From Spizellomyces punctatus DAOM BR117 (taxonomy: Eukaryota), in the NCBI GenBank assembly GCA_000182565.2, contig KQ257461.1: 64,000 bases of DNA; one strand, written 5' to 3'. Positions 13,945-41,902 of this stretch are shown in pieces (position 1 is the first letter of the stretch; each line of letters opens with the position of its first letter). The notes below the pieces were generated by a model. That model worked only from the letters and a program-made list of their open reading frames with translations. It did not search any database and was not told the origin of the DNA. A program made the translations under genes and the position numbers.

Positions 13945-14033
13945 CGATCACATATTCGATAGTGCGGAGCCGATGGGTATTGGCACTAGCACCCGCACCA
14001 GGGATTGAACCGGCGACAACCAGTTCGGAAAAG
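13945..14033 (-). ncRNA. Fanzor omegaRNA: ~74-nt scaffold (14033-13960) plus flank-derived guide TCGAATATGTGATCG (13959-13945)
   Basis: Begins ~15 nt after the Fanzor stop and overlaps the right TIR. The sequence TTTTCCGAACTGGTTGTCGCCGGTTCAATCCCTGGTGCGGGTGCTAGTGCCAATACCCATCGGCTCCGCACTA closely resembles my recollection of the SpuFz1 scaffold. Exact RNA ends are inferred. Confidence 0.85.
13960..13989. repeat. Right terminal inverted repeat of the Fanzor element (includes terminal TA)
   Basis: TAGTGCGGAGCCGATGGGTATTGGCACTAG; inverted match to 41873-41902 with one mismatch. Confidence 0.93.
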
Positions 14034-14047
14034 GTAATCTAACTAAT

Positions 14048-14112
14048 CTACGCTACGGCTGGAACACCCCTGCTGAACACTTTTGGTCTACCGTGTCCAT
14101 CTAACATTGATT
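14048..14112 (-). pseudogene. Detached C-terminal codons of the Fanzor ORF
   Basis: Joined to 39921 across GATT, it reads ...WNRDMLSTCNMLMIMK-SMLDGHGRPKVFSRGVPAVA*, with the TAG at 14050-14048. Confidence 0.9.
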
Positions 14113-14717
14113 TGTAGCGAACGACTCTGATAAACCGGTTCGCTCTGTAGCGAACGACTCTGATAAACCGGTTCGCTTAAAGGCATCAGGTGACCATGAT
14201 TGAGGTTTCCGCAATTGCAACCTAAGCTTCGAAACCCCTGAGATCAAGCTCGGTTCTGGGCTACACCAGCGCAGCGCAAAGGATACGTTACACAGCCATG
14301 ATTGATCATGGCGATGGTCCGAGATGGGAAGATCGGACGCTGCCACCCTAATGAAGGCTATGGAAACTAGTGTAGATGTTACCATAGCATATTCTTGTAT
14401 AAAAAGAGGAATTCAATAAAATAAGTCAGCGGGCAGAAGCCGTAGCGACACAAAATCCCCATAACTCACTTCTCAACTCCAATCTTAGGTTAACAGGAAC
14501 CTAACAGAGCGCTTCAATGGCCTGATCACCCATACCGAAGCCTCTAAATCCTGCTCGGTTCACGACTAACCGACTCTCCTTGCCTCTCACCCTCAAGTCG
14601 CTACCGACGCCCAAAGAAAGGATTTGGAGACTACGATTCCTAGTACGGACACCCATACAACCTGCTAGGAGACCCAAGTTGTCTTTACCGTAGTCTACCA
14701 ACAAAAAATCCATTACA
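14113..14717 (+). repeat. LTR-A (5' of A1), first 33 bp tandemly duplicated
   Basis: TGTAGCGAACGAC...CCATTACA, with TATAAAA and AATAAA inside. Homologous to 22735-23306, 31410-31981 and 39348-39920. Confidence 0.92.
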
Positions 14718-14728
14718 TGGTGGAGAAG
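14718..14728 (+). promoter_or_regulatory. Primer-binding site, tRNA-Ala-like (TGGTGGAGA)
   Basis: Immediately follows the LTR terminal CA. Complementary to the ...TCTCCACCA 3' end typical of tRNA-Ala. The same site occurs in copy A2 at 31401-31409 (-). Confidence 0.7.
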
Positions 14729-14871
14729 TGCGACGAACTGCCTTCCCCTCTCAAATTCAGCTGAAAACCTTATTCGGTCGTACCGAAACTCTTGCACAAA
14801 CCGAGATCCGCTCAGGTAGCTACTCGGAAACCTTTTCTCTCGTTTCGGAAACAGACTTCACGAAACCGAGA

Positions 14872-17800
14872 ATGATGCCGGTCGAACGCTCTCCAACGCG
14901 AGGCTGCTCACCTGTGATCCAGACTCGTAGTCAGGGTCCTGCGGAGGACGTTGAAGTCCCTCCCGCAACATGCCCAAGGCGTTCAGGGACCACTTCCGTC
15001 GAACCGGAAGCCCCTAACTTGGCCACGATGGCCTCTGAAGTGGCAGCATTAAAAGAAGACATTGCCCGCTCGACTGCTGCAATGCAGTTGGCAACTCAAA
15101 ATCTTACGGAACAGCTTCATAGGCTTTCCGAACGTCAGACAGCGGCGGATGAGCGCCTCGCACGAGCCTTAGAAGCCCTAGTGCATCGCCCGCTGCCTGA
15201 ACAACCTCTCATAGCACGAGCTACAAGAGAACGGTCCGCAACCCCGTGGGAAACGTCGGACACACCAAGGGAGCATACCGAACCAAGTTTTTCAGGTCCG
15301 GTGCCTCCAATCCAAGTGCCAGCGGCCCCGTGGGCCAGCGACACCAAGGTCGATTCCTTGAAAGCAAAGGACGTACCCGAGTTTACGGGCAAAAGAAACC
15401 AAGACATTGAAGAATGGCTCAACAAAGTCCAACTTCTTCAAAATGTTAGCGCAATGTCGGATGCCAGGATGGTACAGCTCCTACCAGCCATGATAGCCGA
15501 GAAAACCCCTGCCGACGCTTGGTTTTACACTCTGGAAGCCCAGGAAACTCGCTCGTGGACCTGGAAAAGGTGGAAAGAAGAACTGCTTCGAGAGTTCCGA
15601 GATCCCCTAACCGAGTCCAAGCGCAAAACCGAATATGTGTGCTGCCATGCAAACCCCAAAGAATTTCGCAGCTTTCTCGCGTTCATTGACCACAAAACTC
15701 ATCTCCGGCGCCTCGCATACGGCGACCGGGCAAACATAGAATGTCCTGCTGACCAGCATTTTGACCTAATAGTTGAACAATTGCCCAGCGACATCCAAAT
15801 CATGGTCAAATCCTGTAATGTCATGAACCTGACCAAATTAAAAGACTTCCTGCGCCTTTATTTCAGCTCTGATGACACCAGAAAATGAGACCCTTGCTAC
15901 AGCGGTGCTGCAGAAGCTCAGAAGAAGTCACAAAAGACCGGAACTGACAAAGGCCCTAAGCAGACGGCTCAACATAAAACTGGAAACCCCGAAAAGGGTT
16001 GCGACGGCCCTCAGAAGATGGTTCTGGACCCCAACACAGAACCACCGGCACCCTGCAAATTCTGTCAGAAAAAGCATTGGAATGTTTTCTGCTGGCAGAA
16101 CCCGAACCGAAAAGATCCTGAAGATGGAAAGAAGGGACCATACGGAGCACCCATGCCCGCAGGTTGGAAACCCAAACAGGAGTCCAAGAAGTCGTACATA
16201 GTGGAGCTGGACTCGACGTCCGCTACCACCGAGACTCTTTTTTCGGCTTCGGAACTGGAAAGGACAGCCGCCGCTAATCAAGGATTCCACACCATCGGAT
16301 TCTTTCATTCACCCGAGCACTCGGAATCAACAATTTTGATGACCGCACCTCTTTCCGAGGTCACGGTGACCAAGGAAGAGGACCCCCACATGCCCACGCA
16401 GGGCTGGGACCAAGTCTGGGACAACATAGCCATCATCTGGGGCACCCCGCAAGTGGCTCTGATGATGGGCAACAACCCCCGCGCGCTCAGCTTCTTCGCC
16501 AAAGAACCGAAGCGAGGCGCCGGGCACCTCGGGAACAACCCCTACGCAGTTGTGTGGAGTTCCCACCACCTCTACATCGCTGCCGCAGCCAAAGCTGACA
16601 AGGATCGAATCCTGCGAAAAGTCCGAGAAGACAGTACCCCTTGTTTGATCCTCCTTGCCTGGATAAGGCTCGACGAGCATGAGAAATTCTTGATGTGGAG
16701 CTCCGAAGATCCTGTTATCTTTGATTCTTACGCCAACCTGCAACTGGTGGCATTTCTCCTGACAGGCAATATCATTCGCTCAGACTATTATTATCATCAC
16801 AGAAACCCCAAATTTCTGCACGTTAAAGACCATCCACGTCTCCAAAGACATGAAGAGAGCGAACGGACGTGTATAGTCATGCTGGCTATCGAACAAGTTG
16901 CTCGCCAGAATAAAACAACAAAACCACAAAATGACAAATCTAGAGAGCACTTTGAGAGTGCGATCAAGGCTACGGAAGCAACAAGTAACGACATCGCGCC
17001 CCATTTCGAGGTCATGGTGCCTTCCATCAATGCCTTCTACTCGGTAGATTTAGGCGATGTACTCAAAAGCCAGACCAAGACCCAAACGCAGCCTTGCTGG
17101 ACGCTAGCCGTCATCGCTCAGCTCTGGGCACCTGTGGTACTAGACACAGGAGCCTGCGAGTCTCTGGTTTCCGACACGTACCAGGGCCTTCTGTTCTCCG
17201 AAACTGATTTGCAGGATGCGGAAACGATGGCTTTCAAAGGCATTGGTGGACGTATCTCATCTACCAAGACAGTATGCCTCAAAACTTCCCTCAGAGGCCG
17301 CGGAGGAGAATACCTGACTTTCCGCGCCTATTTCCGAGTCATTGCATACGGGAAACCTCTCATCATCCTAGCCAATGACGTTCTGGGACATCTGAAACTC
17401 CAAACCTTGGTTCAGGAACCCCCATTACCCAGTTTCGTGGTGATGCTCAAGAATCCGGACATCCTTATCCCTTGCTCCATAACAGATGAGCTGGACACCG
17501 ATCACATGCGCAGCATGCCATACAAGACCAAGCAGGGTGAATTCATGAAGGATGCATCAATGCCACGGCTGACCAAAGCCAAAGCTCAGAAGTCTAGATT
17601 AACCATGTTAATCATGGGACAGACGCGCGTGGCAGCCCAAACTTTTCTCATCAAAAACCCTCTTGACGCCACCGCTGCTAGCTCAACGGTCCTGTTAGGC
17701 CTCAAACTGTCCACCGCGACCCATAATTCGGTTGCGGACCCCGAAGAGAACATTTCCAAAGAAGAATGGCAGACACTTCGGAACAAATGGAACCTCGACT

Positions 17801-20800
17801 CTACGGAGAGGGCTCCAGGGGCCTTCGAAGCCCAATTAAAAGACGCGGAACGTTTCCACGTCGATCTCAAGCGACCCAAACCCATGGTCTGGGCCCTAAT
17901 CAACATTCTACGACACTTCCATCAAGCCTTCAGCTATGAGGGTCATCTCATAGGGAACTACACCAAGATTCCTTATGCGCCTCGATTTATCTCGGCTCTG
18001 CCACCCCTTTCGAGGCCACGGTCATACTCTCCGTTGGAGCGGACAGCCCTCGAGACGGAGCGAGACACCATGATGGGGCTTCAGAGGTGGAACGAACCAC
18101 CGAAGTAACCTTCGCCAGCGATCCTGTTATCATTCGCTATGCAGACAAACCCCCGCGCATAGCCTTCGACTATCGCCGAGCCAACGACTGCATGGCCTGG
18201 GATCCATATCCCTTTCCCATCATGCTCGACATCCTGAACTGGATCGTCGCAGTCCCATTGCGATACATATCGGGAGGTGACGCAAACAAAGGATTCTACC
18301 AAATTGCCATCACCAATGCGTCGGTATGCAAATGGCTCGCGCTCAGACTCCATGACGGCATCTACGAACCACTCTTTATGCCCTTCGGACCCAAGACTGC
18401 CCCCTCGCACTTCTGTCAGGTGATGGACGACACCTTGGGTCCCTCCAAATGGCAAAATATCAACAACTTCGTCGACGATATCCACACACGAGCGGAGACA
18501 GCCGCGGAAGCCCTAGACGCCATTGCAGACTGGCTCGACCGCTTTTCCAGAGCCAAACTCACCCTAAGACTCGACAAGTGTCAATGGCTCTTTCACCAGC
18601 TCACGGCCCTCGGTTTCGTTGCCTCCTCTCAGGGTCTCGCTACTGATCCAGACAAGGTCGCAACCATAGTCGATTGGCCACGACCCAAATTCATAGGTGA
18701 CCTATGGTCATTCGTGGGTCTCCTAGGGTTCTATGCCCAATTCATTTCTCGCTACGCGGAACTCGTCCGACCCCTGCAAGACGCTATCCAAGAGGGCGTT
18801 CGCGAATACCGAGACCTTAAAAAGGGTCGCACTGACCCGAAGAAAGGCACTGAAAAGCTCAATTCACCATCCATGCTCGACACGGCGGTGGCCCCTACAA
18901 TCACAGCCACCGGAGCCTGATTTGAGGTTTCGCAACATCCGAAATCTAGCTCCTCAGACCTACCGGTGGTCAATCTACGCCAATCATCGCTGGCGGACTT
19001 ACCCATTGACCCCTTTTGTGTCGGACGCCTTGCTTGCAAGCGCCCCGACCAAGGTCTGCACAGATTTATCGCGAAGCGTGAAGTTTCATGGACCGATTCC
19101 CAAAACTCTGCCTTCGCAGCCGCCAAGCAGGCTCTGACAACAGCTCCAGTGCTCGCGGCACCCAGAAAAGGGTTCCCCTACACCCTTCACAGTGACGCTT
19201 CCTACACAGCGTTTAATGTCACGCTCGAACAGTTACAGCCAGATGCTTCTAAACGCCCGCTGTGCTACCATTCCTGAGGCACCACCACCTCGGAAAAGAA
19301 GGCCCCCCCTGTCAAACTCAAGGCCGGATGCCTCATTTGGGGCCTCGGAAAACTCCGCCCATACCTTGAAGGCCTGCCTTTCACGGTCATTACTGATCAC
19401 CGAGCTCTTTTGTGGCTCGCTAAATACAAAGGCGAGAACCGTAAGCTTCTCCGCTGGGCCCTCGATCTTAGTTACTGGTCTGAATGGATGACAATCATTC
19501 ACAAACCAGGACGTTTTCACATTGTTGCTGATACACTTTCATGGCTACTAGGAGCGGAAACCCTACTCTGCTCCACCGCGACCCAAATATGGGTGTCGAA
19601 ACGCGGAAGACGATGGCTGCGCACCACACCAGCTGCTCTCGCACCTTCCTCGACACTGGCAGATGCCGTCTTTCGTCTGGCCTTACAGCCTGCACTCATT
19701 GCCGCCATCCGCGCTGGCCTCACCGGCCAGCTCCACCCCATAGCCCAACAGGCCCGCACGCTCCTATGGGAGACCAGCCCCAACACCTACACTACAGCCG
19801 ATGCGCACTTTCTTCAGGACTGGCAATGTGCAGATAACCTGCTGTGGCACCGTTTTTCAGTCTCCGAAGACCTTTGGTGCCTCTACGTGCCCCCTGCTTG
19901 CACCCCCAAGGTGCGCAAGCTTTTTCACGAGGGGGGAGGACACTTCGGATTCGAAAGAACCTACGCCAGAGCCACAGCACAAGTCTGGTGGCCAAAGATG
20001 GCACAAGATTTCAGAAAACATTGCGCAGGATGTGAAACCTGCCAACGCTCAAAAAGGGTACCGCAACTGATTCCGGGGTTGTTGAAACCCATACCACCAG
20101 CTCCGGGACGCTGGACAGTCATCACGACTGACTTCGTAACCAAGCTCCCACTTACTTCCAGAGGGTACGATGCCTTTTGGCTAATAGCTTGTAAATGCTC
20201 AAAGAGGATCCACATATGGCCCCTCAAGAGCACCGCGACAGCTACTCAGGTCGCAGAACTATTTATAGAATGCTACATCCCATTGCACGGCATTCTGGAG
20301 ACTATTATCTCAGACCATGACTCCATCATTGAAAGGCTGTCAGAAACCAGAAATGCAGATGTGGAAGAGCTCTGTAAACATCTCGGAGACCTAAACATCC
20401 TTATCCGAGATCTGATGATTGAGGCCCAGGATTCACAGAAAAGATATGTGACAGAATTCTTCTGTCAGTGCTATGGTTATACTGGTTAGATGTGGTTCCA
20501 AACTAGTGGTCACATGACTTTGCTGATGGTGTCAACATTCATTTGACCAGAATTAGATAAATAAGCAGATTTAGCCATTTCTGGCTAAATTAGATGAGTA
20601 TCCTGACACACTAGCATCTGCCCCTTTCAATCAAGTGGCACAGTGTATTTAGGATGACTTGTCTCACTTGTGATTGGCTATAAATGGTGCAATAGGCTGA
20701 CAAATAGTTTAGGATGACATGTACAAGATCTGATTGGTTGCAAATGGTGCAATAGGCTGACAAATAGTTTAGGATGACATGTACAAGATCTGATTGGTTG

Positions 20801-22677
20801 CAAATGGTGCAATAGGCTGACAAATAGTTTAGGATGACATGTATGAGTTCTGATTGGTTGCAAATGGTGCAATAGGCTGACAAATAGTTTAGGATGATGT
20901 GGGTGAGATCTGATTGGGTAGTTAGGATATAGCATTTGTCAGCCCCTTTGTCTATAAAAAGAGGACCTCTCTGAGGCCCCTCAAAGGAAAATAACAAGTA
21001 GTAACCAAGTCTTCCCTAGTTTTCTGTTGTCTTCTTGTCCCTGCTAGCCTGTTACAAGATACTATGATTTATCACAACAACATTTGGAGTTCCGGAGAGG
21101 AGATAAGGTGCTTCTGAGCATGAAAAACCCAGCAGGGTATGAGTCCAAGATCACTCCAAAATGGCTGGGACCAGTCACAGTGACTGACTGTAACCTTCTC
21201 TGTGACAACTACGAGTGAAAACTGCCAGATAAGATGAGATGACTTCATCCATGGTTTCACATATTGAAATTATGTCCATACCAGAAGCCTGTCGATGCCG
21301 AAACTGAGGAAAGGATCGCGGAAGCACAAATGGAGGATTCCGACACTTCAAAAGGCGAGTTCGAAGTGGAAGCGATAGTAGACCATCGAACCAGGCGCAG
21401 AAAGCGTCAATTTCGAATACGTTGGGCCGGATACCCACCCCATGAGGATACCTGGGAACCAGAGGAAGCCCTAACAGAGGCTTCCGAAGCCTTAGAAGAG
21501 TACTGGAGATCCAGAGCTCCCACTAGCGCACTAGTAGAGGACTCCTTGGTAGTCAGCTTTGCAGGCGATGCCCTGGCTTACACTTCCGACCACCAATGCT
21601 TCACAATTTATCCGGACAATAGCTCACGTGATAATCACGCCCTCTCACCAGAANNNNNNNNNNNNNNNNNNNNNNNNNNNNNNNNNNNNNNNNNNNNNNN
21701 NNNNNNNNNNNNNNNNNNNNNNNNNNNNNNNNNNNNNNNNNNNNNNNNNNNNNNNNNNNNNNNNNNNNNNNNNNNNNNNNNNNNNNNNNNNNNNNNNNNN
21801 NNNNNNNNNNNNNNNNNNNNNNNNNNNNNNNNNNNNNNNNNNNNNNNNNNNNNNNNNNNNNNNNNNNNNNNNNNNNNNNNNNNNNNNNNNNNNNNNNNNN
21901 NNNNNNNNNNNNNNNNNNNNNNNNNNNNNNNNNNNNNTACCCTTGAGGAAGGCTATCCCTGGTCAGAAGTAAGCGACGCTTCGCTGCCGAGACTCTATCG
22001 AGCGGCTCGGAGCAGCTATGGCCACCTGGGTCGAAGTTTGGATTCGTGAGCTGTTCGAAGACCCAAACAAACCCCTCGAACACTATCATGGTGAAGATTG
22101 GGTGGTTGACGGGGCTTCGAAGCTGTACGCCACGAGCCAGCCCCTCACGATGCATATTGCGGAGCCCTACAGTAGGGCTTCCGACGGCGGTCAAGCAGCT
22201 GTCGGTATCGTCGCTGATGCAAAAAAGATCGGGAAGAGATTACGGGACGTACCCTGCGCCGCCTGGCTTGATGCTGGGGTCCCTCAACATGCGGCCGGAA
22301 ACCCCAAAACGGCCCGCTTCACCCTCTGGCCTGATCGCGAGGCCCACGATTTTGCGGACATAGCCATCGAAGCCGCGAGAGCAGTGTTGTTAAAGCTAGC
22401 CAACGCAGCTGAAACCACAGAAGAGCAGCTCCGTCCCAAACATCGGGAGCACGCCTATTACCACTTTCGAGCGGTTAACTTGAAAAGGGCCGCAGAGACG
22501 TTCACAGCCCTCTACGTAACCCGAGCCAACGGTTCCAGGACACCTGGAACCCTGGCTCCGGAAGCCACTGACCAAATTTGGTTCTGCGCAAACATCATGG
22601 GGCGCACTACCATAATCTGGATGATCAACGAAGACAGCCTTGAAGCTGACGATGACTATCCAGTTGCGTCATGGTAG
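14872..22677 (+). pseudogene. Family A gag-pol (Gag, CCHC knuckle, Dam-like insert, aspartic protease, RT, RNase H, partial integrase, chromodomain, C-terminal extra domain), disrupted
   Basis: Motifs CKFCQKKHWNVFC, VLDTGA, FDYRRAN, PFGPKTAP, FVDD, LHSDAS, H..GGHFG..C..C, TDFV and EVEAIVDHR...RWAGY...DTWEP. Stops at 15886, 18918 and 19275, a 1-bp frameshift near 18092, and an LTR-B insertion. Confidence 0.88.
20447..21056 (+). mobile_element. Solo LTR of family B (610 bp) in the A1 integrase region
   Basis: TGTGACAG...GTTACA flanked by a 5-bp AGATA duplication; internal 60-bp tandem repeats. Confidence 0.92.
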
Positions 22678-22734
22678 AAGCGAGGTTCGGGCACTCACAG
22701 ATGAGTCGCCGAACCTTCTTTTTCGAAGGGGGGA

Positions 22735-23306
22735 TGTAGTGAACGACTCTGATAAACCGGTTCGCTCAAAGGCATCAGGTGACCACGATTGAGGTTTCCG
22801 CAATTGTAACCTAAGCTTCGAAACCCCTAAGATCAAGCTCGGTTCTGGGCTACACCAGCGCAGCATGAAGGATACGTTACGCAGCCATGATCAATCATGG
22901 CGATGGTCCGAGATGGGAAGATCGGATGCCGCCACCCTAATGAAGGCTACGGAAACTAGTGTAGACGTTACCGTAGCATATTCTTGTATAAAAAGAGGAA
23001 TTCAATAAAATAAGTCGGCGGCCAGAAGCCGTAGCGACATTAAATCCCCACAACTAGCTTCTCAACTCCAATCTTAGGTTAACAGGAACCTAACAGAGCG
23101 CTTCAATGGCCTGATCACCCGCACTGAAGCCTCTAAATCCTGCTCGGTTCATGACTAACCGACTCTCCTTGCCTCTCACCCTCAAGTCGCTACCGACGCC
23201 CAAAGAAAGGATTTGGAGACTATGATTCCTAGTACGGACACCCACACAACCTGCTAGGAGACCCAAGTTGTCTTTACCGTAGTCTACCAACAAAAAATCT
23301 GTTACA
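22735..23306 (+). repeat. LTR-A (3' of A1), preceded by PPT GAAGGGGGGA
   Basis: Homologous to 14146-14717; followed by CTGG. Confidence 0.92.
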
Positions 23307-25685
23307 CTGGGATTCTCTGGGTTTCTGGGGTTCTCTGGGATGCTGGGGTTCTCTGGGGTTCCAGGTAAAGTCCATGGATAGTTAAAGTCTCAGGGGTGGT
23401 TTCAGGTGGGTCCAATAGGTCCAAGGGTTGAATAACAGGAGAGTGTACCAGGTGGTGGGTGTCAGGGTGGTGGTTCTTGATATCTTCCCCAGTAGAGGCA
23501 GAACCTCTATCTTCTACTGAGTCTGCTTGCCATTTCCCTGCTGCTTGGTCTTCAAGGGGCATAGGGGGGCAATATGGCCTGGTTTTCTGCACCTGAAACA
23601 GGCTCCCTTCTTTCTGAGCTCAGTCTTCTCAGCCTCAGTGAGTTTGGAGAGAGGCTTCCCAGAGTTGGTGGATATACTATCTATCTCCATAGGGACTACT
23701 CCAGAGTTCTCAGTCTTAGGGGAGTAGTAGCTGGTGGCCTGGCTTCTTCTCTGGTAGCTGAACTGGATCTGGTCAATCCTATCAGCTGTTGCTGCAGCTG
23801 TGGCTAAGTTGATGGGTGGGNNNNNNNNNNNNNNNNNNNNNNNNNNNNNNNNNNNNNNNNNNNNNNNNNNNNNNNNNNNNNNNNNNNNNNNNNNNNNNNN
23901 NNNNNNNNNNNNNNNNNNNNNNNNNNNNNNNNNNNNNNNNNNNNNNNNNNNNNNNNNNNNNNNNNNNNNNNNNNNNNNNNNNNNNNNNNNNNNNNNNNNN
24001 NNNNNNNNNNNNNNNNNNNNNNNNNNNNNNNNNNNNNNNNNNNNNNNNNNNNNNNNNNNNNNNNNNNNNNNNNNNNNNNNNNNNNNNNNNNNNNNNNNNN
24101 NNNNNNNNNNNNNNNNNNNNNNNNNNNNNNNNNNNNNNNNNNNNNNNNNNNNNNNNNNNNNNNNNNNNNNNNNNNNNNNNNNNNNNNNNNNNNNNNNNNN
24201 NNNNNNNNNNNTCCTAATCTCTTCGACATAGGTGGTGGCTACTAACAGTTGGCCTTCTGGTGATAGATCTGCAGCTGCCTGGAAGTACTCTTCAAGTCTG
24301 AGGAGGTATGTCCTAATCTCTTGGACATTCCTGTTGCCTTTGTAGGGCTTCAACTTGCTTTGGAGGACTTTTACCAGGGATTTATCTACTCTGGGTTGGT
24401 ACTGAGCAGTGGCTGGTGTGGTGGAGTTCAGCTGCTGGAGCTTTGCTTGATAAAGCTCCTGCCTGACCTGGTCTATGTCAAGCTCAGCAATGGTGTTGAA
24501 GAGAATCTCTTCCTGGCTGGTCATGGTGGTAATGGGGTGGAGTCTTGGGTAGTTACAATATTACTTGTAACAACAACAATAGGGTGGGTCACAGGCCCAA
24601 GAGATGCAATGTTACTTGCAGTCAAAATAGGGTGGGTCACAGGCCCAAAATATGCAATATTACTTGCAAGTACAACTGGTGGGGAGGATACAGGGGGACT
24701 CTACAGCTTCTTCACAATCCCACAATAGAAAAACTCTATCTGTTTTCTCAGAGCTTCTGATGCTAACCAAGTGGTGTGTCTGGTGGTAGTTCTGGAGGTT
24801 GTGCTGGGGGTAGGTTTGTGGTATGGGGTGGTGTGGGCTGGTCTGTAGGAGTCCTTGAGGGGGGGTTCTGGGCATAAGTTGGGCCTGGGATAAGAGGCAG
24901 GGGTCTTCTGATATTACTCAGAAGGACTAGGGCAGGGTCTGGGGTCTGGGGTCTGTTGGTCTTCTGATATTACTCAGAAGGTCTAGGGCAGGGTCTGGGG
25001 GTCTGGGGATCTTAGCTTCTGATCTCTCACAGAAGGTCTAAGAGTCTGGGGTTGTTGTCTAAGGTGGTGCTACCATGTAACAGGCTAGCAGGGACAAGAA
25101 GACAACAGAAAACTAGGGAAGACTTGGTTACTACTTGTTATTTTCCTTTGAGGGGCCTCAGAGAGGTCCTCTTTTTATAGACAAAGGGGCTGACAAATGC
25201 TATATCCTAACTACCCAATCAGATCTCACCCACATCATCCTAAACTATTTGTCAGCCTATTGCACCATTTGCAACCAATCAGAACTCATACATGTCATCC
25301 TAAACTATTTGTCAGCCTATTGCACCATTTGCAACCAATCAGATCTTGTACATGTCATCCTAAACTATTTGTCAGCCTATTGCACCATTTGCAACCAATC
25401 AGATCTTGTACATGTCATCCTAAACTATTTGTCAGCCTATTGCACCATTTATAGCCAATCACAAGTGAGACAAGTCATCCTAAATACACTGTGCCACTTG
25501 ATTGAAAGGGGCAGATGCTAGTGTGTCAGGATACTCATCTAATTTAGCCAGAAATGGCTAAATCTGCTTATTTATCTAATTCTGGTCAAATGAATGTTGA
25601 CACCATCAGCAAAGTCATGTGACCACTAGTTTGGAACCACATCTAACCAGTATAACCATAGCACTGACAGAAGAATTCTGTCACA
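23307..25685 (-). mobile_element. 5' half of Ty3/gypsy family B: LTR 25685-25076, PBS, repeat-rich leader, gag, start of pol
   Basis: The LTR appears identical to 20447-21056. PBS TGGTAGCACCACC at 25075-25063. Leader has ~57-bp and ~48-bp tandem repeats. Confidence 0.9.
23514..24524 (-). CDS. Family B Gag with CCHC zinc knuckle (spans an N gap)
   Basis: KPYKGNRN...YLLRLEEYF, VPMEID and CFRCRKPGHIAPLC. Confidence 0.8.
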   Translation of the reverse strand: MTSQEEILFNTIAELDIDQVRQELYQAKLQQLNSTTPATAQYQPRVDKSLVKVLQSKLKPYKGNRNVQEIRTYLLRLEEYFQAAADLSPEGQLLVATTYVEEIRXXXXXXXXXXXXXXXXXXXXXXXXXXXXXXXXXXXXXXXXXXXXXXXXXXXXXXXXXXXXXXXXXXXXXXXXXXXXXXXXXXXXXXXXXXXXXXXXXXXXXXXXXXXXXXXXXXXXXXXXXXXXXXXXXXXPPINLATAAATADRIDQIQFSYQRRSQATSYYSPKTENSGVVPMEIDSISTNSGKPLSKLTEAEKTELRKKGACFRCRKPGHIAPLCPLKTKQQGNGKQTQ

Positions 25686-28600
25686 TATCTTTTCTGTGAA
25701 TCCTGGGCCTCAATCATCAGATCTCGGATAAGGATGTTTAGGTCTCCGAGATGTTTACAGAGCTCTTCCACATCTGCATTTCTGGTTTCTGACGGCCTTT
25801 CAATGATGGAGTCATGGTCTGAGATAATAGTCTCCGGAATGCTGTGCAATGGGATGTAGCATTCTATAAATAGTTCTGCGACCTGAGTAGCTGTCGCGGT
25901 GCTCTTGAGGGGCCATACGTGGATCCTCTTTGAGCATTTACAAGCTATTAGCCAAAAGGCATCATACCCTCTGGAAGTAAGTGGGAGCTTGGTTACAAAG
26001 TCAGTCATGATGACTGTCCAGCATCCCAGAGCTGGTGGTATGGGTTTCAGCAACCCCAGAATCAGTTGCGGTACCCTTTTTGAGCATTGGCAGGTTTCAT
26101 ATCCTGTGCAATGTTTTCTGAAATCTTGTGCCATCTTTGGCCACCAGACTTGTGCTGTGGCTCTGGCGTAGGTTCTTTCGAATCCGAAGTGTCCTCCCCC
26201 CTCGTGAAAAAGCTTGCGCACCTTGGGGGTGCAAGCAGGGGGCACGTAGAGGCACCAAAGGTCTTCGGAGACTGAAAAACGGTGCCACAGCAGGTTATCT
26301 GCACATTGCCACTCCTGAAGAAAGCGCGCGTTGGCTGTAGTGTAGGTGTCAGGGCTGGTCTCCCATAGGAGCATGCGGGCCTGTTGGGCTATGGGGTAGA
26401 GCTGGCCGGTGAGGCCAGCGCAGATGGCGGCAATGAGTGCAGGCTGTAAGGCCAGACAAAAGACGGCATCTGCCAGTGTCAAGGAAGGTGCGAGAGCCGC
26501 TGGTGTGGTGCGCAGCCATCGTCTTCCGTGTTCCGCCACCCATATTTGGGTTGCGGTGGAGCAGAGTAGGGTTTCTGCTCCTAGTAGCCATGAAAGTGTA
26601 TCAGTGACAATGTGAAAACATCCTGGTTTGTGAATGATTGTCATCCATTCAGACCAGTAACTAAGATCGAGGGCCCAGCAGAGAAGCTTATGGTTCTCGC
26701 CTTTGTATTTAGTGAGCCACAAAAGAGCTTGGTGATCAGTAATGACTGTGAAAGGCAGGCCTTCGAGGTATGGGCAGAGTTTTCCAAGGCCCCAAATGAG
26801 GCATCCGGCCTCGAGTTTGACGGGGGGGGCCTTTTTTTCTGAGGTGGTGGTGCCTCGAGAATGGTAGCACAGCGGGCGGTTAGAAGCATCTGGCTGTAAC
26901 TGTTCGAGCATGACATTAAATGCTGTGTAGGAAGCGTCACTGTGAAGGGTGTAGGGGAACCCTTTTCTGGGTGCCACAAGCACTGGAGCTGTTGTCAGAG
27001 CCTGCTTGGCGGCTGCGAAGGCAGAGTTTCGGGAATCAGTCCATGAAACTTCACGCTTCACAATAAATCTGCACAGACCTTGGTCCGGGCGCTTGCAAGC
27101 AAGGCATCCGACACAAAAGGGGTCAATGGGTAAGTCCGCCAGCGATGATTGGCATAGATTGACCGCCGGTAGGTCTGAGGAGCTAGATTTCGGATGTTGC
27201 GAAACCTCAAATCAGGCTCTGGTGGCTGTGATTGTAGGGGCCACCGCCATGTCAAGCATGGATGGTGAATTGAGCTTTTCAGCACCTTTCTTTGGGTCAG
27301 CGCGACCCTTTTTAAGGTCTCGGTATATGCGAACGCCCTCTTGGATAGCATCTTGCAGGGGCCAGATGAGTTCCACGTAGCGAGAGATGAATTGGGCATA
27401 GAACCCTAGGAGACCCACAAATGACCATAGGTCACCTATGAATTTGGGTTGTGGCCAATCGACTATGGTTGCAACCTTGTCTGGATCGGTAGCAAGACCC
27501 TGAGAGGAGGCAACAAAACTGAGAGCCGTGAGCTGGTGAAAGAGCCATTGACACTTGTTGAGTCTTAGGGTGAGTTTGGCTCTGGAAAAGCAGTCGAGCC
27601 AGTCTGCAATGGCATCTAGGGCTTCCGCAGCTGTCTCTGCTTGTGTATGGATATTGTCGATGAAGTTGTTGATATTTCGCCATTTGGAGGGACCCAAGGT
27701 GTCATCCATCACCCGACAGAAGTGTGAAGGGGCAGTCTTGGGTCCGAAGGGCATAAAGAGTGGTTCATAGATGCTGTCATGGAGTCTGATCACAAGCCAT
27801 TTGTGTACCAACACATTGGTGATGGCAATTTGGTAGAATCCTTTGTTTGCATCACCTCCCGATATGTATCGGAATGGGACTGCAACGATCCAGTTCAGGA
27901 TGTTGAGCATGATGGGAAAGGGATATGGATCCCAGGCCATGCAGTCATTGGCTCGGCGATAGTCAAAGGCTACCCACGGGGGTTTGTCTGCATAGCGAAT
28001 GATAACAGGATTGCTGGTGAAGGTTACTTCGGTGGTTCATTTCCACCTCTGAAGCCCCATCATGGTGTCTCGTTCCAGCTCAAGGGCTGTCCGCTCCAAC
28101 GGAGAGTATGACCATGGCCTCAAAAGGGGTGGTGGAGCCGAGATAAATCAAGGTGCATAGGGAATCTTAGTGTAGTTCCCTATGAGATGACCCTCATAGC
28201 TGAAGGCTTGATGGAAGTGTCATAGAATGTTGATTAGGGCCCAGACCACGGGTTTGGGTCACTTGAGATCGATGTGGAAACGTTCTGCATCTTTTAATTG
28301 GGCTTCGAAGGCCCCTGGAGCCTTCTCCATAGAGTCGAGGTTCCATTTGTTCCGAAGTGTCTGCCATTCTTCTTTGGAAATGTTCTCTTCAGGGTCTGCA
28401 ACCAAATTATGGGTTGTGGTGGACAGTTTGAGGCCTAATGGGGCCGTTGAGCTAGCAGCGGTGGCCTCAAGAGGGTTTTCGATGAGAAAAGTTTGGGCTG
28501 CCACGCGCATCTGTCCTGTGATTAACATGGTTAATCTAGACTTCTGAGCTTTGGCTTTGGTCAGCTGTGGCATTGACACATCCTTCATGAATTCACCCTG

Positions 28601-31600
28601 CTTGGTCTTGTATGGCGTGCCATGCATGTGATCGGTGTCCAGCTCATCTGTTATGGAGCAAGGGATAAGGATGTCCGGATTCTTGAGCATCACCACGAAA
28701 CTGGGTAATGGGGGTTCCTGAACCAAGGTTTGGAGTTTCAGATGTCCCAGAATGTCGTTGGCTAGGATGATGAGAGGTTTCCCATATGCAATGACCCGAA
28801 AGTAGGTGCAGAAAGTCAGGTATTCTCCTCCATGGCCTCTGAGGGAAGTTTCGAGGCACACTGTCTTGGTAGATGAGATACGTCCACCAATGCTGTTGAA
28901 AGCCATCATTTCCACATCCTGTAAATCAGTTTCGGAGAACAGAAGGCCCAGGTATGTGTCAGAAACCAGAGACTCGCAGGCTCCTGTGTCTAGTACCACA
29001 GGTGCCCAGAGCTGAGCAATGACAGCTAGCATCCAGCAAGGCTGCATTTGGGTCTTGGTCTGGCTTTTGAGTACATCGCCTAAATCTACCAAGTAGAAGG
29101 CATTGATGGAAGGCACCACAACCTCGAAATGGGGCATGATGTCATTAATTGTTGCTTCCATGGCCTTGATCACACTCTCAAAGTGCTCCCTAGATTTGTT
29201 GTTTTGTGGTTTTGTTGTTTTATTCTGGCGAGCAACTTGTTTGATAGCCAGCATGACTATATACATCCGTTCACTCTCTTCATGTCTTTGGAGATGTGGA
29301 TGGTCTTTAACGTGCAGAAATTTGGGGTTTCCGTGATGATAATAATAGTCTGAGTGAACAATATTGCCTGTCAGGAGAAATGCCACCAGTTGCAGGTTGG
29401 CGTAAGAATCAAAGATAACAGGGTCTTCAGAGCTCCACATCAAGAATTTCTCATGCTTGTCGAGCCTTATCCAGGCAAGGAGGATCAAACAAGGGGTACC
29501 ATCCTCTCGGACTTTTTGCAGGATTCGATCCTTGTCAGCTTTGGCTGCAGCAGTGATGTAGAGGTGGTGGGAACTCCACGCAACTGCATAGGGGTCATTC
29601 CTGAGGTGCCCAGCACCTCGCTTTGGTTCTTTGGCAAAGAAGCTGAGCATGCGGGGGTTGTCGCCCATCATCAGAGCCACTTGCGGGGTGCCCCGGATGA
29701 TGGCTATGTTATCCCAGACTTGGTCCCAGCCCTGCGTGGGCATGCGGGGGTCCTCTTCCTTGGTCACCGTGACCTCGGAAAGAGGTGCGGTCATCAAAAT
29801 TGTTGATTCCGAGTGCTCGGGTGAATGAAAGAATCCAATGGTGTGGAATCCTTGATTAGCGGCGGCTGTCCTTTCCAGTTCCGAAGCCGAAAAAAGAGTC
29901 TCGGTGGTAGCGGACGTCGAGTCCAGCTCCACTATGTACGACTTCTTGGACTCCTGTTTGGGTTTCCAACCTGCGGGCATGGGTGCTCCGTATGGTCCCT
30001 TCTTTCCATCTTCAGGATCTTTTCGGTTCGGGTTCTGCCAGCAGAAAACATTCCAATGCTTTTTCTGACAGAATTTGCAGGGTGCTGGTGGTTCCTTGTT
30101 GGGGTCCGGAACCATCCTCTGAGGACCATTGTGACCCTTTTCGGGGTTTCCAGTTTTATGTTGAGCCGTCTGCTTAGGGCCTTTGTCAGTTCCGGTCTTT
30201 TGTGACTTCTTCTGAGCTTCTGCAGCACCGCTGTAGCAAGGGTCTCATTTTCTGGTGTCATCAGAGCTGAAATAAAGGCGCAGGAAGTCTTTTAATTTGG
30301 TCAGGTTCATGACATTACAGGATTTGACCATGATTTGGATGTCGCTGGGCAATTGTTCAACTATTAGGTCAAAATGCTGGTCAGTGGGATATATTATGTT
30401 TGCCCGGTCGCCATATGTGAGGCACCGGAGATGAGTTTTGTGGTCGATGAATGTGAGAAAGCTGCGAAATTCTTTGGGGTTCACATGGCAGTGCACATAT
30501 TTGGTTTTGCGCTTGGACTTGGTTAGGGGATCTCAGAACTCTTGAAGCAGTTCTTCTTTCCACCTTTTCCAGGTCCACAAGCAAGTTTCCTGGGCTTCCA
30601 GAGTGTAAAACCAAGCATTGGCAGGGGTTTTCTTGGCTATCATGGCTGGTAGGAGCTGTACCATCCTGGCATCTGACATTGCGCTAACATTTTGAAGAAG
30701 TTGGACTTTGTTGAGCCATTCTTCAACATCTTGGTTTCTTTTGCCCATAAACTCAGGTATGTCCTTTGCTTTCAAGGAATCGACCTTAGTGTCGCTGGCC
30801 CATGGGGCTGCTGGCACTTGGATTGGAGGCACCAGACCTGAAAAACTTGGTTCCATATGCTCCCTTGGTGTGTCCAATGTTTCCCATGGGGTTGCAGACT
30901 GTTCTCTTGTAGCTCGTGCTATGAGAGGTTGTTCAGGCAGTGGCACTAGGGCTTCTAAGGCTCGTGCGAGGCACTCATCTGCCACTGTCTGATGTTCGGA
31001 AAGCCTATGAAGCTGTTCCGTAAGATTTTGAGTTGCCAACTGCATTGCAGCAGTCGAGTGGGCAATGTCTTCTTTTAACGCTGCCACTTCAGAGGCCATC
31101 ATGGCCAAGTTAGGGGCTTCCGGTTCGACGGAAGTGGTCCCTGAATGTCTCGGGCATGTTGCGGGAGGGACTTCGACGTCCTCCGCTGGACCCTGACTAC
31201 AAGTCTGGATCACAGGTGAGTGGCCTCACATTGGAGAGCGTTCGACCAGCATCATTCTCAGTTTCATGAAGTCTGTTTCCGAAACGAGAGAAAAGGTTTC
31301 CGAGTAGCTACCTGAGCAGATCTCGGTTTGTGCAAGAGTTTCGGTACGACCGAATAAGGTTTTCAGCTGAATTTGAGAGGGGAAGGCAGTTCGTCGCACT
31401 TCTCCACCATGTAATGGATTTTTTGTTGGTAGACTATGGTAAAGACAACTTGGGTCTCCTAGCAGGTTATGTGGGTGTCTGTACTAGGAATCATAGTCTC
31501 CAAAATCCTTTCTTTGGGCGTCAGTAGCAACTTGAGGGTGAGAGGCAAGGAGAGTCGGTTAGTTGTGAACTGAGCAGGATTTAGAGGCTTCAGTGCAGGT

Positions 31601-31981
31601 GATCAGGCTGTTGAAGCACTCTGTTAGGTTCCTGTTAACCTAAGATTGGAGTTGAGAAGCTAGTTGTGGGGATTTAGTGTCACTATGGCTTCTGCCCACA
31701 ACTTATTTTATTGAATTCATCTTTTTATACAGGAATATGCTACAGTAACATCTACACTAGTTTCCGTAACCTCCATTAGGGTGGCGGTGTCCGATATTCC
31801 CGTTTCCGATCATTGCCATGATCAATTATGACTGCGTACCATATCCTTTGCGCTGCGCTGGTGTAGCCCAGAACCGAGCTTGATCTCAGGGGTTTCGAAG
31901 CTTAGGTTGCAATTGCGGAAACCTCAATCATGGTCACCTGATGCCTTTAAGCGAACCGGTTTATCAGAGTCATTCGCTACA
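25686..31981 (-). mobile_element. 5' part of family A copy A2 (LTR 31981-31410, PBS, decayed gag-pol from 31255 to the integrase)
   Basis: Inverted homolog of 14146-20446 with many additional CpG-type transitions. Confidence 0.92.
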
Positions 31982-32320
31982 CCAGAATCCCAGAGAACCC
32001 CAGAAACCCAGAAAATCGCAGGACCCCTGAGAACCCCAGAATCCCAGAGAACCCCAGAAACCCAGAGAATCCCAGAACCCCAGAGAACCCCAGAACCCCA
32101 GAGAACCCCAGAATCCCAGAGAACCCCAGAACTCCAGAGAACCCAAGAACTCCAGAGAACCCAAGAACCCCAGAGAACCCAAGAACTCCAGAGAACCCAA
32201 GAACCCCAGAGAACCCCAGAACCCCAGAGAACCCAAGAACCCCAGAGAACCCCAGAACCCCAGAGAACCCTAGAACCCCAGAAAACCCAGGAACCCCAGA
32301 GAACCCCAGAACCCCAGACC
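31982..32320 (+). repeat. 18-bp coding tandem repeat (CCAGAACCCCAGAGAACC; PEPQRT), about 19 units; continues at 23307-23363 on the opposite strand
   Basis: Directly visible. Confidence 0.9.
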
Positions 32321-35300
32321 ACCCAGGCCACCTACCAAGAAAGCAAGATCCATGTAGTAGAGGTGGCTCCATACTCTTTAAGTACCCCCAAAGGGCCAAG
32401 GATTCCCCGGAGTCACTTGCTGACTGTGCAAGGTAGAATCCAAGGAATCCCAGTAACCATTCTCCTGGATAATGGGGCAAACCAACTCTATGTGTCACAG
32501 TCCTTTGTCAAGAAGGCACAACTGGTGACTCATTCTCTCCCTGGAGCAGAAATCTCTATGGCTGATGACAGAAAGCACCAAGAAATAGGCTTTGTCAAAG
32601 GTCTTCAGTACTCAGTAGGAACCTACACAGAACAGTCAGACTTTATAGTAGCCCCAATCAAGTTTGACTTGATCCTGGGTATACCTTGGTTTGCCTGGAG
32701 GAATCCCAGTATCAACCACAACAAGAACACTGTGACCTTCACCACCTCCCAGCACCCCAGAGTCAGATGGTTTGTTAAGCAGGCCAGCTCTTCCAACAAA
32801 TCCCAGAAGTCCAATCTTATCACCATGGTATCAGCAAAGATGTTGGTCAGAACACTGAAGAAGAGGACAGCAACAGCTTTTGCTGTGTATCTCAAGAACC
32901 CTCAAGATACCAGCACCCCTCCAGACACCATGGATTCCAAAGTCACCAAGCTTCTTGAAAACTATCAAGATGTCTTTGTGGAAGAGCTTCCCCCAGGACT
33001 TCCCCCTGAGAGAACAGTGGATCACAGAATTGAACTCAGTGCCCCCAACCAGACCCCCTGGAGACCAACCTACCACCTCTCTTCTTTGGAGTTAGAAGAA
33101 CTGAGGAAGCAGCTGTCTGAACTTCTGGAGGCAGGCCACATCAGACCATCCAAGAGCCCCTTTGGAGCACCCATCCTCTTTGTCAAGAAGAAAGAAGGGT
33201 CTTTGAGGATGTGTGTGGACTACAGGGCTCTGAATAAAATCACCATCAAGAGCAGATATCCCCTCCCTAGGATTGATGAGCTGATGGACAGACTGAATGG
33301 AGCCCAGGTCTTTACCAAGCTGGATCTCAAGTCAGGCTACTACCAGATCAGGATCCACCCAGAAGACATCCCCAAGACAGCTTTCAGAACCAGATATGGT
33401 CACTTTGAGTTCCTGGTCATGTCCTTTGGAATGACCAATGCCCCAGCCACTTTCATGACTTTGATGAATGATGTTCTAAGACCCTTCTTGGACATCTTTG
33501 TTATTGTCTACCTAGATGACATCCTCATCTACTCCAAGACCCCAGAAGATCACCTGGACCACCTCAAGCAGGTTCTGCAAGCCCTCAGGCAGAACAAGCT
33601 GTATGCCAACCCCAGCAAGTGCCAGTTCTTCAAGCAAGAAGTAGAGTTTCTTGGCCATGTAGTCTCACATGAAGGAGTCAGGCTTGACCCCAAGAAAGTG
33701 CAGACTGTTCAAGAATGGCCCACCCCTCAGAGCGTCACTGAAGTCAGACAGTTCATGGGCCTGGTGAACTACTTCCATAGCTTTCTGAAGGACCTGGCAG
33801 AGCAAGCTGCACCATTGACAGACCTGTTGAGAAATGACAAGCCCTGGACCTGGTCTGAACCTCAGGAGAAAGCTTTTCAGCAGCTGAAGGATATGGTCAC
33901 CAAAGCCCCTGTACTCAGACCCTTTGACCCAGCCTTGCCTACCACTGTCTTCCCTGATGCCTCAGGCTATGCAGTTGGAGCATGGCTTGGACAGGATGAT
34001 GGGAAAGGCATGAGACCAGTTGCCTACCACTCCAGGAAGATGGCTCCAGCAGAGACCAGATATGACACCAGACAACAAGAGCTGTTAGCCATCCATGATG
34101 CCCTCAGAGTTTGGAGGCCCTACCTGGAAGGAACCCCCTTCAAAGTTATCTCAGACCACCAGTCCCTCAAGTGGCTACAGAACCAGCCCTTCTTGACCAG
34201 AAGACAAGCCAGATGGGTCATGAATTTCCAATCTTTTGACTTTGAGATTGGCTATGGCCCAGGAAGACTCCACACAGTGGCAGACATCCTGTCTAGAAGA
34301 CCAGACCTGGCCCCAAGATGCATCAAGTGCAAGGCCTTGGTGACAGCAGAGTTGAATGCTGTGACCCACACCACCAGCACCCTTCAAGAGAGATTGAAGA
34401 CCAGTACCACAGAAGACCCAGAACTTCAAGAGCTCATCCAAGCTTTGGATGACCCCAGGAGACCAGAAGACCAGCAACAAAGGCTCAAATACCTCAGCCA
34501 TCAAGATGGGTTACTCTATTTCCAGGACAGGATTTTTGTTCCTAGTGACCCAGACCTAAGGTTGAGCCTACTCCAAGAAACCCATGACACTCAGTATGCT
34601 GGACACTTTGGCATCACCAAGACCCATGATGCCCTAGCAAGGCATTACTACTGGCCAAGGATGTACAAGGACATTACGAAGTATGTCAAGTCTTGTGATT
34701 CCTGCCAGAGAAGCAAACCTAGTCAGCAACCACCAGCAGGCTTGCTGCAGCCCCTCCCAGTACCTAAGACCAGATGGAGCCAGATTTCCATTGACCTGAT
34801 CCCTGACCTACCTGTGACTTCCTCTGATCACAATGCCATCTTTGTCATTGTTGACAGATTGTCAAAGAGAGGCCACTTCATCCCTACCACCACCAGAGCC
34901 TCAGCCAAGGACCTGGCCCTGCTCTTCTTGAAGCACATCTTCAAGCACCATGGCCTCCCAGAAGTGATTGTATCTGATAGAGACACCAAGTTCACCAGTT
35001 CATTCTGGTCCAACTTGATGCAACTCTTAGGCTGCAACACCCTCCTAGCCACTGCAAGGCACCAGCAGACCAATGGACAGGCAGAGAGAACCATCAAGAC
35101 TTTGAAGATCTACCTGAGAGCTTTCCTGCAGTACAACATGAAGAATTGGGAAGATCTTGTACCCTTTGCTGAGTTTGCCTACAACAACAGTATCTCAGAA
35201 ACCACAGGCTTTACCCCATTCTACTTAGAGAATGGCCAGCATCCCAGGACCCCAGCAACACCACCAGGAGAAAGCAATGATCCTGAAGCAACAGACTTCC

Positions 35301-35607
35301 ACCAGTATATTCAGCAACTGCTTCAAGTAGCCAAGGATAACATGATACTGGCCCAAGAAAGACAAGTTCAGCAAGCCAACAAGTCTCTCAGCAAGGCCCC
35401 AAGCTACCCCTTAGGCTCCAAAGTTTGGCTATCTAGAGAAGGTATCACCCCAGAAGAAGAAGCCCAGAGGCCAGCCCAGAAACTTCTTCACCCCTGGCTT
35501 GGACCTTACAGAATCAAGGCCAAGGATGAATTTCAGAATTACACCCTGGAGCTCCCCAGCACCATGAAGATTCATCCAGTGTTCCATGTGAGACTCCTCA
35601 AGCCTTA
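31982..35607 (+). CDS. Family B Pol (PEPQRT repeat, protease, RT, RNase H, integrase, SH3-like), open frame, 3'-truncated
   Basis: Motifs [63 protein letters not shown] and HPVFHV. Confidence 0.92.
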
Positions 35608-38600: not shown

Positions 38601-39920
38601 AGAACTCTATTGAGCGGCTCGGAGCAGCTATGGCCACCTGGGTCAAAGTTTGGATTCATGAGTTGTACGAAGACCCAAACAAACCTCTTGAACACTATCG
38701 TGGTGAAGATTGGGTGGTTGACGGGGCTTCGAAGCCATACGCCACAAGCCAGCCCCTCATGATGCATATTGCAGAGCCCTACAGTAGGGCTTCCGATGGT
38801 GGTCAAGCAGCTGTCGGTATCATTGCCAATGCAAAAACAATAGGGAAGAGATTACGGGATGTACCCTGCGCTGCCTGGCTTGATGCTGGGGTCCCTCAAC
38901 ATGTGGCTGGAAACCCCAAAATGGCCCGCTTCACCCTCTGGCCCGATTGCGAAGCCCATGATTTTGCAGAGATAGCCATCGAAGCCACGAGAGCAGTGTT
39001 GTTAAAGCTAGCCAATGCAGCTGAAACCACAGAAGAGCAGCTCCATCCCAAACATCGGGAGCACTCCTATTACCACTTTCAAGCGGTTAACTTGAAAAGG
39101 GCCGCAGAGATGTTCACAGCCCTTTATGTAACCCAAGCCAATGGTTCCAAGACCCCTGGAACCCCAGCTCCGGAAGCCACTGACCAAATTTGGTTCTGCG
39201 CAAACATCATGGGGCGCACTACCATAATCTGGACAATCAACGAAGACAGCTTTGAAGCTGATGACAACTATCCAGTTGTGTCATGGTAGAGACAAGGTCT
39301 CAAACACTTGCATGCAAGTTGCTGAACCTTCTTTTTCGAAGGGGGAATGTAGCGAATGACTCTGATAAACCGGTTCGCTCAAAGGCATCAGGTGACCATG
39401 ATTGAGGTTTCCGCAATTGTAACCTGAGCTTCGAAACCCCTGAGATCAAGTTTGGTTCTGGGCTACACCAGTGCAGCACAAAGGATATGTTACGCAGTCA
39501 TAATTGATCATGGCAATGATCAGAAATGGGAATATTGGATGCCGCCACCCTAATGAAGGTTACAGAGACTAGTGTAGATGTTACCATAGCATATTCTTGT
39601 ATAAAACAACAAATTCAATAAAATAAGTCATGGGCAGAAGCCATAGTGACACTAAATCCCCAAGAAACTAGCTTCTCAACTCCAATCTTAGGTTAACAGG
39701 AACCTAACAGAGTGCTTCAACGGCCTGATCACCCACACTGAAGCCTCTAAATCCTGCTCGGTTCACAACTAACTGATTCTCCTTGCCTCTCGCCCCCAAT
39801 TCGCTACCGATGCCCAAAGAAAGGATTCGGAGACTATGATTCCTAGTACGGACACCCACATAACCTGCTAGGAGACCCAAGTTGGCTTTACCATAGTCTA
39901 CCAACAAAAAATCCGCTACA
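35608..39920 (+). mobile_element. 3' part of family A copy A2: duplicated RH-IN segment (35608-37056), LTR-B (37057-37666), chromodomain, extra domain, PPT and 3' LTR-A (39348-39920)
   Basis: 35608-37056 is nearly identical to 27134-25686. LTR-B is flanked by AGATA. LTR-A ends CTACA and is followed by GATT. Confidence 0.9.
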
Positions 39921-41737: not shown

Positions 41738-41872
41738 TGATGATATCTGTGGGAAAAGATGAAAGCCTGGGAAAATGGGCAACGACAACTTATATAGGAT
41801 TTTTTGGATCAAACCATAGTTCATGAGTCTAAATCGAGTAAAATTATGATTAAATTGGTTGGAATCTATGTA

Positions 41873-41902
41873 CTAGTGCCAATACCAATCGGCTCCGCAC
41901 TA
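41873..41902. repeat. Left terminal inverted repeat of the Fanzor element; the minus strand reads CATA (41904-41901) at the boundary
   Basis: CTAGTGCCAATACCAATCGGCTCCGCACTA followed by TG. Confidence 0.93.

Follow-up and report, generated by a model that had tools for sequence, protein, structure and literature searches.

What remains of a guide RNA once its nuclease gene has died and been parted from it? The 64,000 nucleotides of DNA analysed here (the window) raise this question through the right-end, guide-RNA module of one dead SPu-1/Fanzor1 transposon of the chytrid fungus Spizellomyces punctatus. A preliminary description of the module had proposed that its omegaRNA could still load Fanzor protein from other loci and direct the cleavage of alleles free of the element, which would protect the retrotransposons now lying inside it. 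We asked whether the junctions, the broken gene, the scaffold and the available reads favour such a homing device, a guide without a target, or a passive relic.

Element ends, empty site and guide

The transposon is bounded by two 30-nt inverted repeats, a left (5') SPu-1 repeat at 41873..41902 (minus strand), with 1 mismatch to the right one, and a right (3') repeat at 13960..13989 (plus strand), which includes the terminal TA at 13960-13961; 29/30 positions of the two are identical. Within the window we found just two copies of the 25-nt repeat core, 13962-13986 (+) and 41876-41900 (-), where 100 shuffles predict 0. Scanning the window with the full 30-mer (TA plus repeat) at up to 9 mismatches picked out the right end at 13960-13989 with 0 mismatches and the left end at 41902-41873 with 1, and nothing else, neither ghost ends nor additional SPu-1 ends. 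Judged from its sequence, the element is not a chance arrangement: the repeats enclose an SpuFz1-like ORF, and the scaffold is preceded by 20 codons whose translation agrees with intact paralogs at the C-terminus.

On the minus strand, the left junction reads CAATTT-CA-TA-GTGCGG. Its CA (41904-41903) and TA (41902-41901) make up CATA (41901..41904), which equals the SpuFz1 TAM, and the TA serves both as a putative target-site duplication and as the first 2 nt of the 30-nt repeat. On the same strand, the right end closes with ...GGCTCCGCAC-TA, and TCGAATATGTGATCG(G) comes next at 13959-13945, from which a 15-nt flank-derived guide can be read (13945..13959, minus strand). The sequence statements of the preliminary description, namely that the scaffold ends in the right TIR and runs into flank, that the left flank ends in CATA, and that the empty allele is CAATTT-CATA-guide, are correct to the base; with the element and one TA removed, CATA directly abuts the 15-nt guide sequence. 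The locus is thus a clean worked example in which TAM and protospacer are readable straight from the junctions. At the occupied site, the protospacer is preceded by ACTA, not CATA. A search for TAM plus guide (up to 3 mismatches) across the 64-kb window returned the occupied site as the sole match and, because this site has ACTA instead of CATA, the module has nothing to cut within the window. As a separate observation, 13820-13834 (+) in the flank matches TA plus guide at 13947-13961 (-) in 14/15 positions, inverted and 126 nt apart. For the window, the match has a BLAST E of 1.9; CGTA rather than CATA stands in front of it, and this likeness is probably chance.

This arrangement is well described for the family. 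SPu-1 was reported with TIRs and putative TA duplications (Bao & Jurka 2013), and Saito 2023 describes a conserved CA upstream of the 5' repeat and a CATA TAM in which mutation of any base abolished cleavage; the legend of its Extended Data Fig. 3a places TAM boxes in the locus scheme. The TSD belongs to the scaffold in Fanzor1, with guides reaching ~15 nt past it (Yoon 2023), and a 2026 review (PMC13565253) that sets out a restorative-homing model counts the 5' TSD towards the TAM and places the 3' TSD in the scaffold. Our copy resides in the same genome as the SPu-1/SpuFz1 family, and shares with it near-identical, TA-ended repeats and the CA before the left repeat. The CATA TAM and the flank-derived guide given in the preliminary description agree with Saito 2023. 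The same sources show that CATA next to the guide in the empty allele is nothing peculiar to this locus but belongs to the built-in SPu-1/Fanzor1 architecture of every copy. Likewise, the layout, the logic of TAM and guide, copies interrupted by Ty3 and the idea of guides acting in trans are already in print for this genome. In this view the element went into a CA|TA site, its 3' TA became part of the scaffold, and CATA plus protospacer is the footprint that the insertion left.

The layout also invites comparison with TnpB/IS200-IS605 homing, in which, as here, the left junction carries the TAM and the right flank supplies the guide, so that an emptied donor site becomes the nuclease target and the occupied site is immune. 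For TnpB such homing is an established model; for Fanzor it has been proposed (PMC13565253; Saito 2023). Applied to this locus, the model would mean that the orphan omegaRNA is still made, loads SpuFz1 from a paralog and cuts alleles carrying CATA plus TCGAATATGTGATCG, whose repair restores or spreads a 28-kb composite. The junctions would suit this model, given that the empty site regains TAM and protospacer and the filled site has no TAM. The comparison has limits, however. IS605 is excised without a scar by TnpA and has no TIR or TSD, whereas SPu-1 carries TIRs together with a putative TA TSD, the 5' TA belonging to the TAM and the 3' TA to the scaffold; according to the passages of Saito 2023 and PMC13565253 on this point, no transposase is known for SPu-1 and homing is not shown for any Fanzor. 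Since Saito 2023 reports that no transposase flanked by SPu-1 repeats was found in this genome, excision is unsupported, and excision of a 28-kb composite would be less likely still. No empty allele is known either, although protection of the 28-kb island would depend on excision or on such an allele, and on a transposase as well.

The interrupted Fanzor1 gene

The main part of the Fanzor1 (SpuFz1-like) pseudogene occupies 39921..41737 (minus strand). Two open pieces of the ORF matched chain 8gkh_P, the solved Spizellomyces punctatus Fanzor1 chain, in a PDB sequence search (41252-41872, E 8.7e-88; 40649-41230, E 2.9e-90), and Pfam gave no family for the two open Fz fragments at E 0.001. Across 41737-39923 we found a single reading frame with eight stops, every one of them TGA. 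Its read-through translation, with X at the stops, aligned to residues 2-604 of 8gkh_P at 1072.9 bits, and all eight X positions fell on Arg of SpuFz1. The nearest database proteins are paralogs from S. punctatus DAOM BR117 (74-79% identity), and the name S. punctatus is carried by 18/30 proteins at E up to 1e-20. The severed end of the ORF lies at 14048..14112 (minus strand) and consists of the 20 final codons, SMLDGHGRPKVFSRGVPAVA, and a TAG stop at 14050-14048. This tail (14110-14051) has 19/20 residues in common with one paralog (P0003) and fits the C-termini of the intact paralogs.

Decay of the coding sequence is concentrated at arginine codons. Compared with the consensus of 7 paralogs, 464/530 clear columns are identical, and 32 of the 66 differences change Arg to Cys, His, stop, Trp or Gln. 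At the 47 columns with a consensus Arg, the pseudogene has 10 CGN, 5 AGR, 21 TGN and 11 CAN codons, and its eight stops are CGA-to-TGA changes. The column of the catalytic Glu (E541, numbered per Saito 2023) holds Lys in the pseudogene and Glu in 6/6 paralogs having the column. Both catalytic Asp columns are kept, and the intact paralogs (627-638 aa) retain the D, E and D columns. With eight in-frame TGA stops and E541K, the Fz1 gene of this element is, as read from its frame, dead.

The two parts of the gene are separated by a nested Ty3/Gypsy LTR-retrotransposon island within the Fz coding sequence (14113..39920, plus strand), delimited by its LTR boundaries and a GATT duplication. An LTR start, TGTAGCG, lies at 14113 and an LTR end, CGCTACA, at 39920, and the 4-bp duplication GATT is present at 14109-14112 and 39921-39924. 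Deleting 14113-39920 and one GATT restores the Fz frame. The LTR edges, the paired GATT and the restored frame together indicate that a single Ty3/Gypsy integration split the gene, at a point 20 codons before the Fz stop, where the island now measures 25.8 kb. In DNA run X16, 7 reads depart from the reference exactly at 14112 (agreement 1), and we read these as insertion-free paralogs that run on into Fz coding sequence. The island contains four LTR copies, matches to RT, RNase H, integrase and chromodomain on both strands, and two assembly gaps (N runs at 21654-21937 and 23821-24211); its segments 20447-21056 and 37057-37666 are 100% identical. It was therefore right to call the omegaRNA orphaned from a decayed Fz ORF, with this island between them and eight TGA stops on the far side. 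Saito 2023 lists 11 loci with extra genes, such as Ty3/Gypsy, within the repeats, some of them inside the Fz gene; compared with the SPu-1/SpuFz1 described there, our copy is a pseudogene with 25.8 kb between its omegaRNA and the main part of the gene. The history suggested by these features is that integration of a Ty3/Gypsy element, 20 codons short of the Fz stop, created the GATT duplication, and that the element would later have grown to the nested island, cutting the RNA module off from the gene.

Several details of the island were observed in passing. At 14113-14145 the first 33 bp of the LTR stand in tandem ahead of a full LTR that begins at 14146, and the remaining three LTR copies have a single start. 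A tandem array of 18-bp (8+10), GGGTTCT-like units at 31925-32361 abuts an inverted LTR at 31981, and a similar repeat follows the LTR ending near 23309. Such repeats beside LTRs hint at rearrangement or at a common insertion context inside the island. An open 1755-aa Ty3/Gypsy pol ORF (protease, RT, RNase H, integrase) spans 31832-37096, and its DNA at 32000-35000 is almost without CpG (o/e 0.02-0.03 per kb), so that this element has either adapted to avoid CpG or lost its CpGs with the frame unbroken.

Scaffold, CpG content and reads

The omegaRNA scaffold (13960..14033, minus strand) comprises stem-loop 1, a linker and stem 2, and ends in the right repeat plus TA. It is 74 nt long from 14033 and 75 nt from 14034, which leaves the 5' boundary uncertain by 1 nt. 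For the 90 nt at 14034-13945 we predicted a fold in which a linker joins stem-loop 1 to a long stem 2 closed by an 8-nt hairpin loop (-30.1 kcal/mol, z -2.55), and 2/200 shuffles folded equally well. Saito 2023 describes an omegaRNA conserved region of ~75 nt, which begins just behind the stop codon and closes with the 3' repeat, within an RNA of 88-90 nt that carries 14-15 nt of guide beyond it. Numbered from 14033, our scaffold has U5, C6, C7, U16, G17, U18, C19 and G20 as named there and a C in place of G22, so that 8/9 named nucleotides agree. The published scaffold (75 nt) differs from ours, which bears U instead of C at 14022 and, when U5-G20 are aligned, falls 1 nt short; the length difference from the Saito 2023 scaffold sits near stem-loop 1.

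Among the listed DNA-read differences, 14022 is the sole scaffold position at which this copy is in the minority (G in 791/952 DNA reads). The change turns CpG into TpG on the RNA strand and a C-G pair of stem 1 into U.G. The U of this copy is common to 11209/16705 RNA reads, which makes the change compatible with a stable RNA. According to the folding model, the scaffold is structurally near-intact, and its published-type fold speaks for the homing model. DNA depth was ~1170 on the scaffold and ~15-25 in unique flank, a ratio that suggests some 50-60 mappable scaffold copies.

By eye, the motif GGTTCAATCCC in stem-loop 1 (14004-14013, minus strand) resembles a tRNA T-arm or Pol III B box, and this likeness is all that would speak for a tRNA-derived or other small-RNA relic instead of an omegaRNA. 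The dominant RNA variant alters two bases of the motif, 14005 and 14007. ARAGORN found 0 tRNA genes in the window and Rfam, at its gathering score, no match; with the limit relaxed to E 10, Rfam placed nothing on the scaffold and gave two chance-level matches in the flank (CRISPR-DR15, E 1.5; snoZ40, E 2.3). Furthermore, the place of the feature between the Fz stop and the right repeat, together with its fold, fits the published omegaRNA (Saito 2023). A tRNA or tRNA-derived identity is effectively refuted by this context, and we give it next to no credence.

Does the base composition indicate that the RNA has been maintained? The preliminary description had pointed out that the RNA keeps its CpGs while the ORF decayed, and the contrast itself holds (CpG o/e 0.97 for the scaffold vs 0.26 for the Fz ORF). 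CpG loss affects 1/7 sites in the scaffold, the single lost one being 14022, and 32/42 CGN in the ORF (Fisher p = 0.003). However, the loss in the adjacent LTR is 3/31, indistinguishable from that of the scaffold (p = 1), and CpG o/e is 0.83 in the functionless coding tail and 0.89 in the unique right flank. Because tail, adjacent LTR and flank retain CpGs equally, retention in the scaffold is no evidence of selection on the RNA, and the contrast cannot be taken as a sign of RNA maintenance. It is real yet regional rather than RNA-specific, which also counts against the homing model.

The regional pattern can be followed along the window. In 1-kb bins, CpG o/e is 0.76-1.06 over 12-20 kb, a stretch that includes the first LTR and gag, and 0.02-0.99 over 20-43 kb, where only the 22-kb bin (0.99) exceeds 0.67. 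The LTR adjoining the RNA has 28 CpG and the LTR adjoining the ORF 15. The non-transposon left flank has an o/e of 0.49 (41905-42400), or 0.38-0.61 per 250 bp across 41905-42500, as if the decay extended ~600 bp past the element. The CpG-decay domain thus spans ~20-42.5 kb, non-transposon flank included. A 2025 survey (PMC12695648) reports that 5mC in Spizellomyces is confined to transposons; given this confinement, deamination in a methylated domain is the likely cause of the CpG decay, and the omegaRNA side, in CpG-preserved DNA, may be unmethylated. Elsewhere in the window, a second CpG-free block at 52000-56000 (o/e 0.00-0.07 per kb, GC ~0.40-0.43), with a 100-N gap at 54093-54192, has repeats in common with 20.4-21.1, 23.3-25.7 and 37.0-37.7 kb.

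To look for RNA from the locus, four public runs were mapped on 13700-14250 at 80% likeness. Among the runs catalogued as containing this stretch, none is labelled as RNA. RNA run X15 contributed 17184 mapped reads, drawn from 60-nt first mates (~6% of the run) that stop short of the guide when they begin at the 5' end, 14033. Depth reached 15575 at 14004-22, 12893 at 14023-41 and 4596 at 13985-14003. The direction of the scaffold reads is probably omegaRNA sense, since it is the same as that of the sense LTR reads. The majority of reads part from the reference at 13996 and 14041, and 245/17184 are at least 99% alike, LTR and repeat reads counted in. At three positions, the letters of other copies make up 95-99% of the RNA reads: 10987/11545 reads at 14005, 9486/9701 minus-direction reads at 14034 (215 with this copy's letter) and 7546/7656 reads at 14038 (110 with this copy's letter). 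Some of these 215 and 110 matching reads could come from here, but they need not, because this copy's letter is shared by 47% of genomic copies at 14034 and 95% at 14038.

No X15 read is assignable to this copy among the 60-nt first mates (~6% of one run). Scaffold-direction depth was 0 over the upstream LTR at 14118-14250, and depth was 0 in both directions at 13890-13946 in the same first mates; there is no sign of read-through from upstream. The RNA-labelled runs X19 and X21 (contigs) had nothing on 13700-14250, which is not proof of absence. As an observation in its own right, a very abundant RNA of other loci matches only the 46-nt stretch 13996-14041 (minus strand; stem-loop 1 and 5' leader), and 14038 is G in 7546/7656 RNA reads vs 26/494 DNA reads. 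This RNA may represent a ghost-type omegaRNA subfamily dominated by a few loci.

Relic, orphan guide or homing device

The genome offers both proteins and precedents for action in trans. Saito 2023 lists 42 Fz loci (Supplementary Data 1 and 2) and 134 gene-less ghost loci, shows that ghost omegaRNAs are active in trans with SpuFz1 in HEK293FT (human) cells, and proposes a trans-acting guide repertoire from gene-less loci. Ghost Spu-1 elements resemble our copy in that no working Fz gene accompanies their omegaRNA in cis. They are ~550 nt long in that study, with repeats differing at 7 positions and a 3-nt bulge in stem 2, whereas our copy has the Fz-type repeat (29/30 between its ends) and the 8-nt loop, and its fold is that of the canonical, not the ghost, omegaRNA of Saito 2023. 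Unlike the ghost family, it became gene-less through insertion and decay, not by family membership.

These precedents lend some weight to a neutral alternative, in which the module is weakly transcribed and loaded in trans as a member of an orphan-guide pool, with no target in the genome. At 14034 and 14038, up to ~1-2% of the RNA reads on the scaffold show the letters of this copy, and the window search recovered only the occupied site. Against this stand the commonness of the same letters among genomic copies and the extent of the target search, which spanned the 64-kb window. We regard the neutral alternative as unlikely, with a modest chance of being correct. The homing model draws on the same intact paralogs and trans-active ghosts (Saito 2023), but faces the lack of any read assignable to this copy and the zero depth on either side of the scaffold, and we consider it improbable. 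Marginally less probable still is its most explicit form, in which a promoter in the 79-nt gene remnant or in the scaffold would act within an unmethylated pocket, the RNA and the paralogs would cut haplotypes with CATA plus TCGAATATGTGATCG, and homing would copy the transposon together with 26 kb of retrotransposons.

The explanation that we favour, with good though incomplete confidence, is that the feature is a decayed SPu-1 right-end module, stranded by Ty3/Gypsy and lying outside the CpG-decay domain, and most likely a passive relic. The gene side would have decayed within the CpG-decay domain, in a pattern that fits 5mC-driven C-to-T change. The omegaRNA side lies outside that domain and for this reason kept its CpGs, as did its functionless neighbours. 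Intact paralogs could in principle load even a relic module in trans. Counted against the relic reading, and compatible with a live function, are the almost undamaged scaffold, the intact paralogs and CpG-preserved surroundings, the ghost omegaRNAs working with SpuFz1 (Saito 2023), and the RNA reads with this copy's letters, including the shared U at 14022.

If true, the homing idea would make this the first natural Fanzor guide to bring about the homing of cargo that it does not encode. It would bear on what Fanzors do in their hosts, with retrotransposons hitch-hiking on an OMEGA guide. On present evidence, the locus is a decayed copy of the ordinary kind, and its family has been described from this genome before (Saito 2023). 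It also illustrates that CpG retention beside a decayed gene can be regional, and should not be taken as selection on the RNA.
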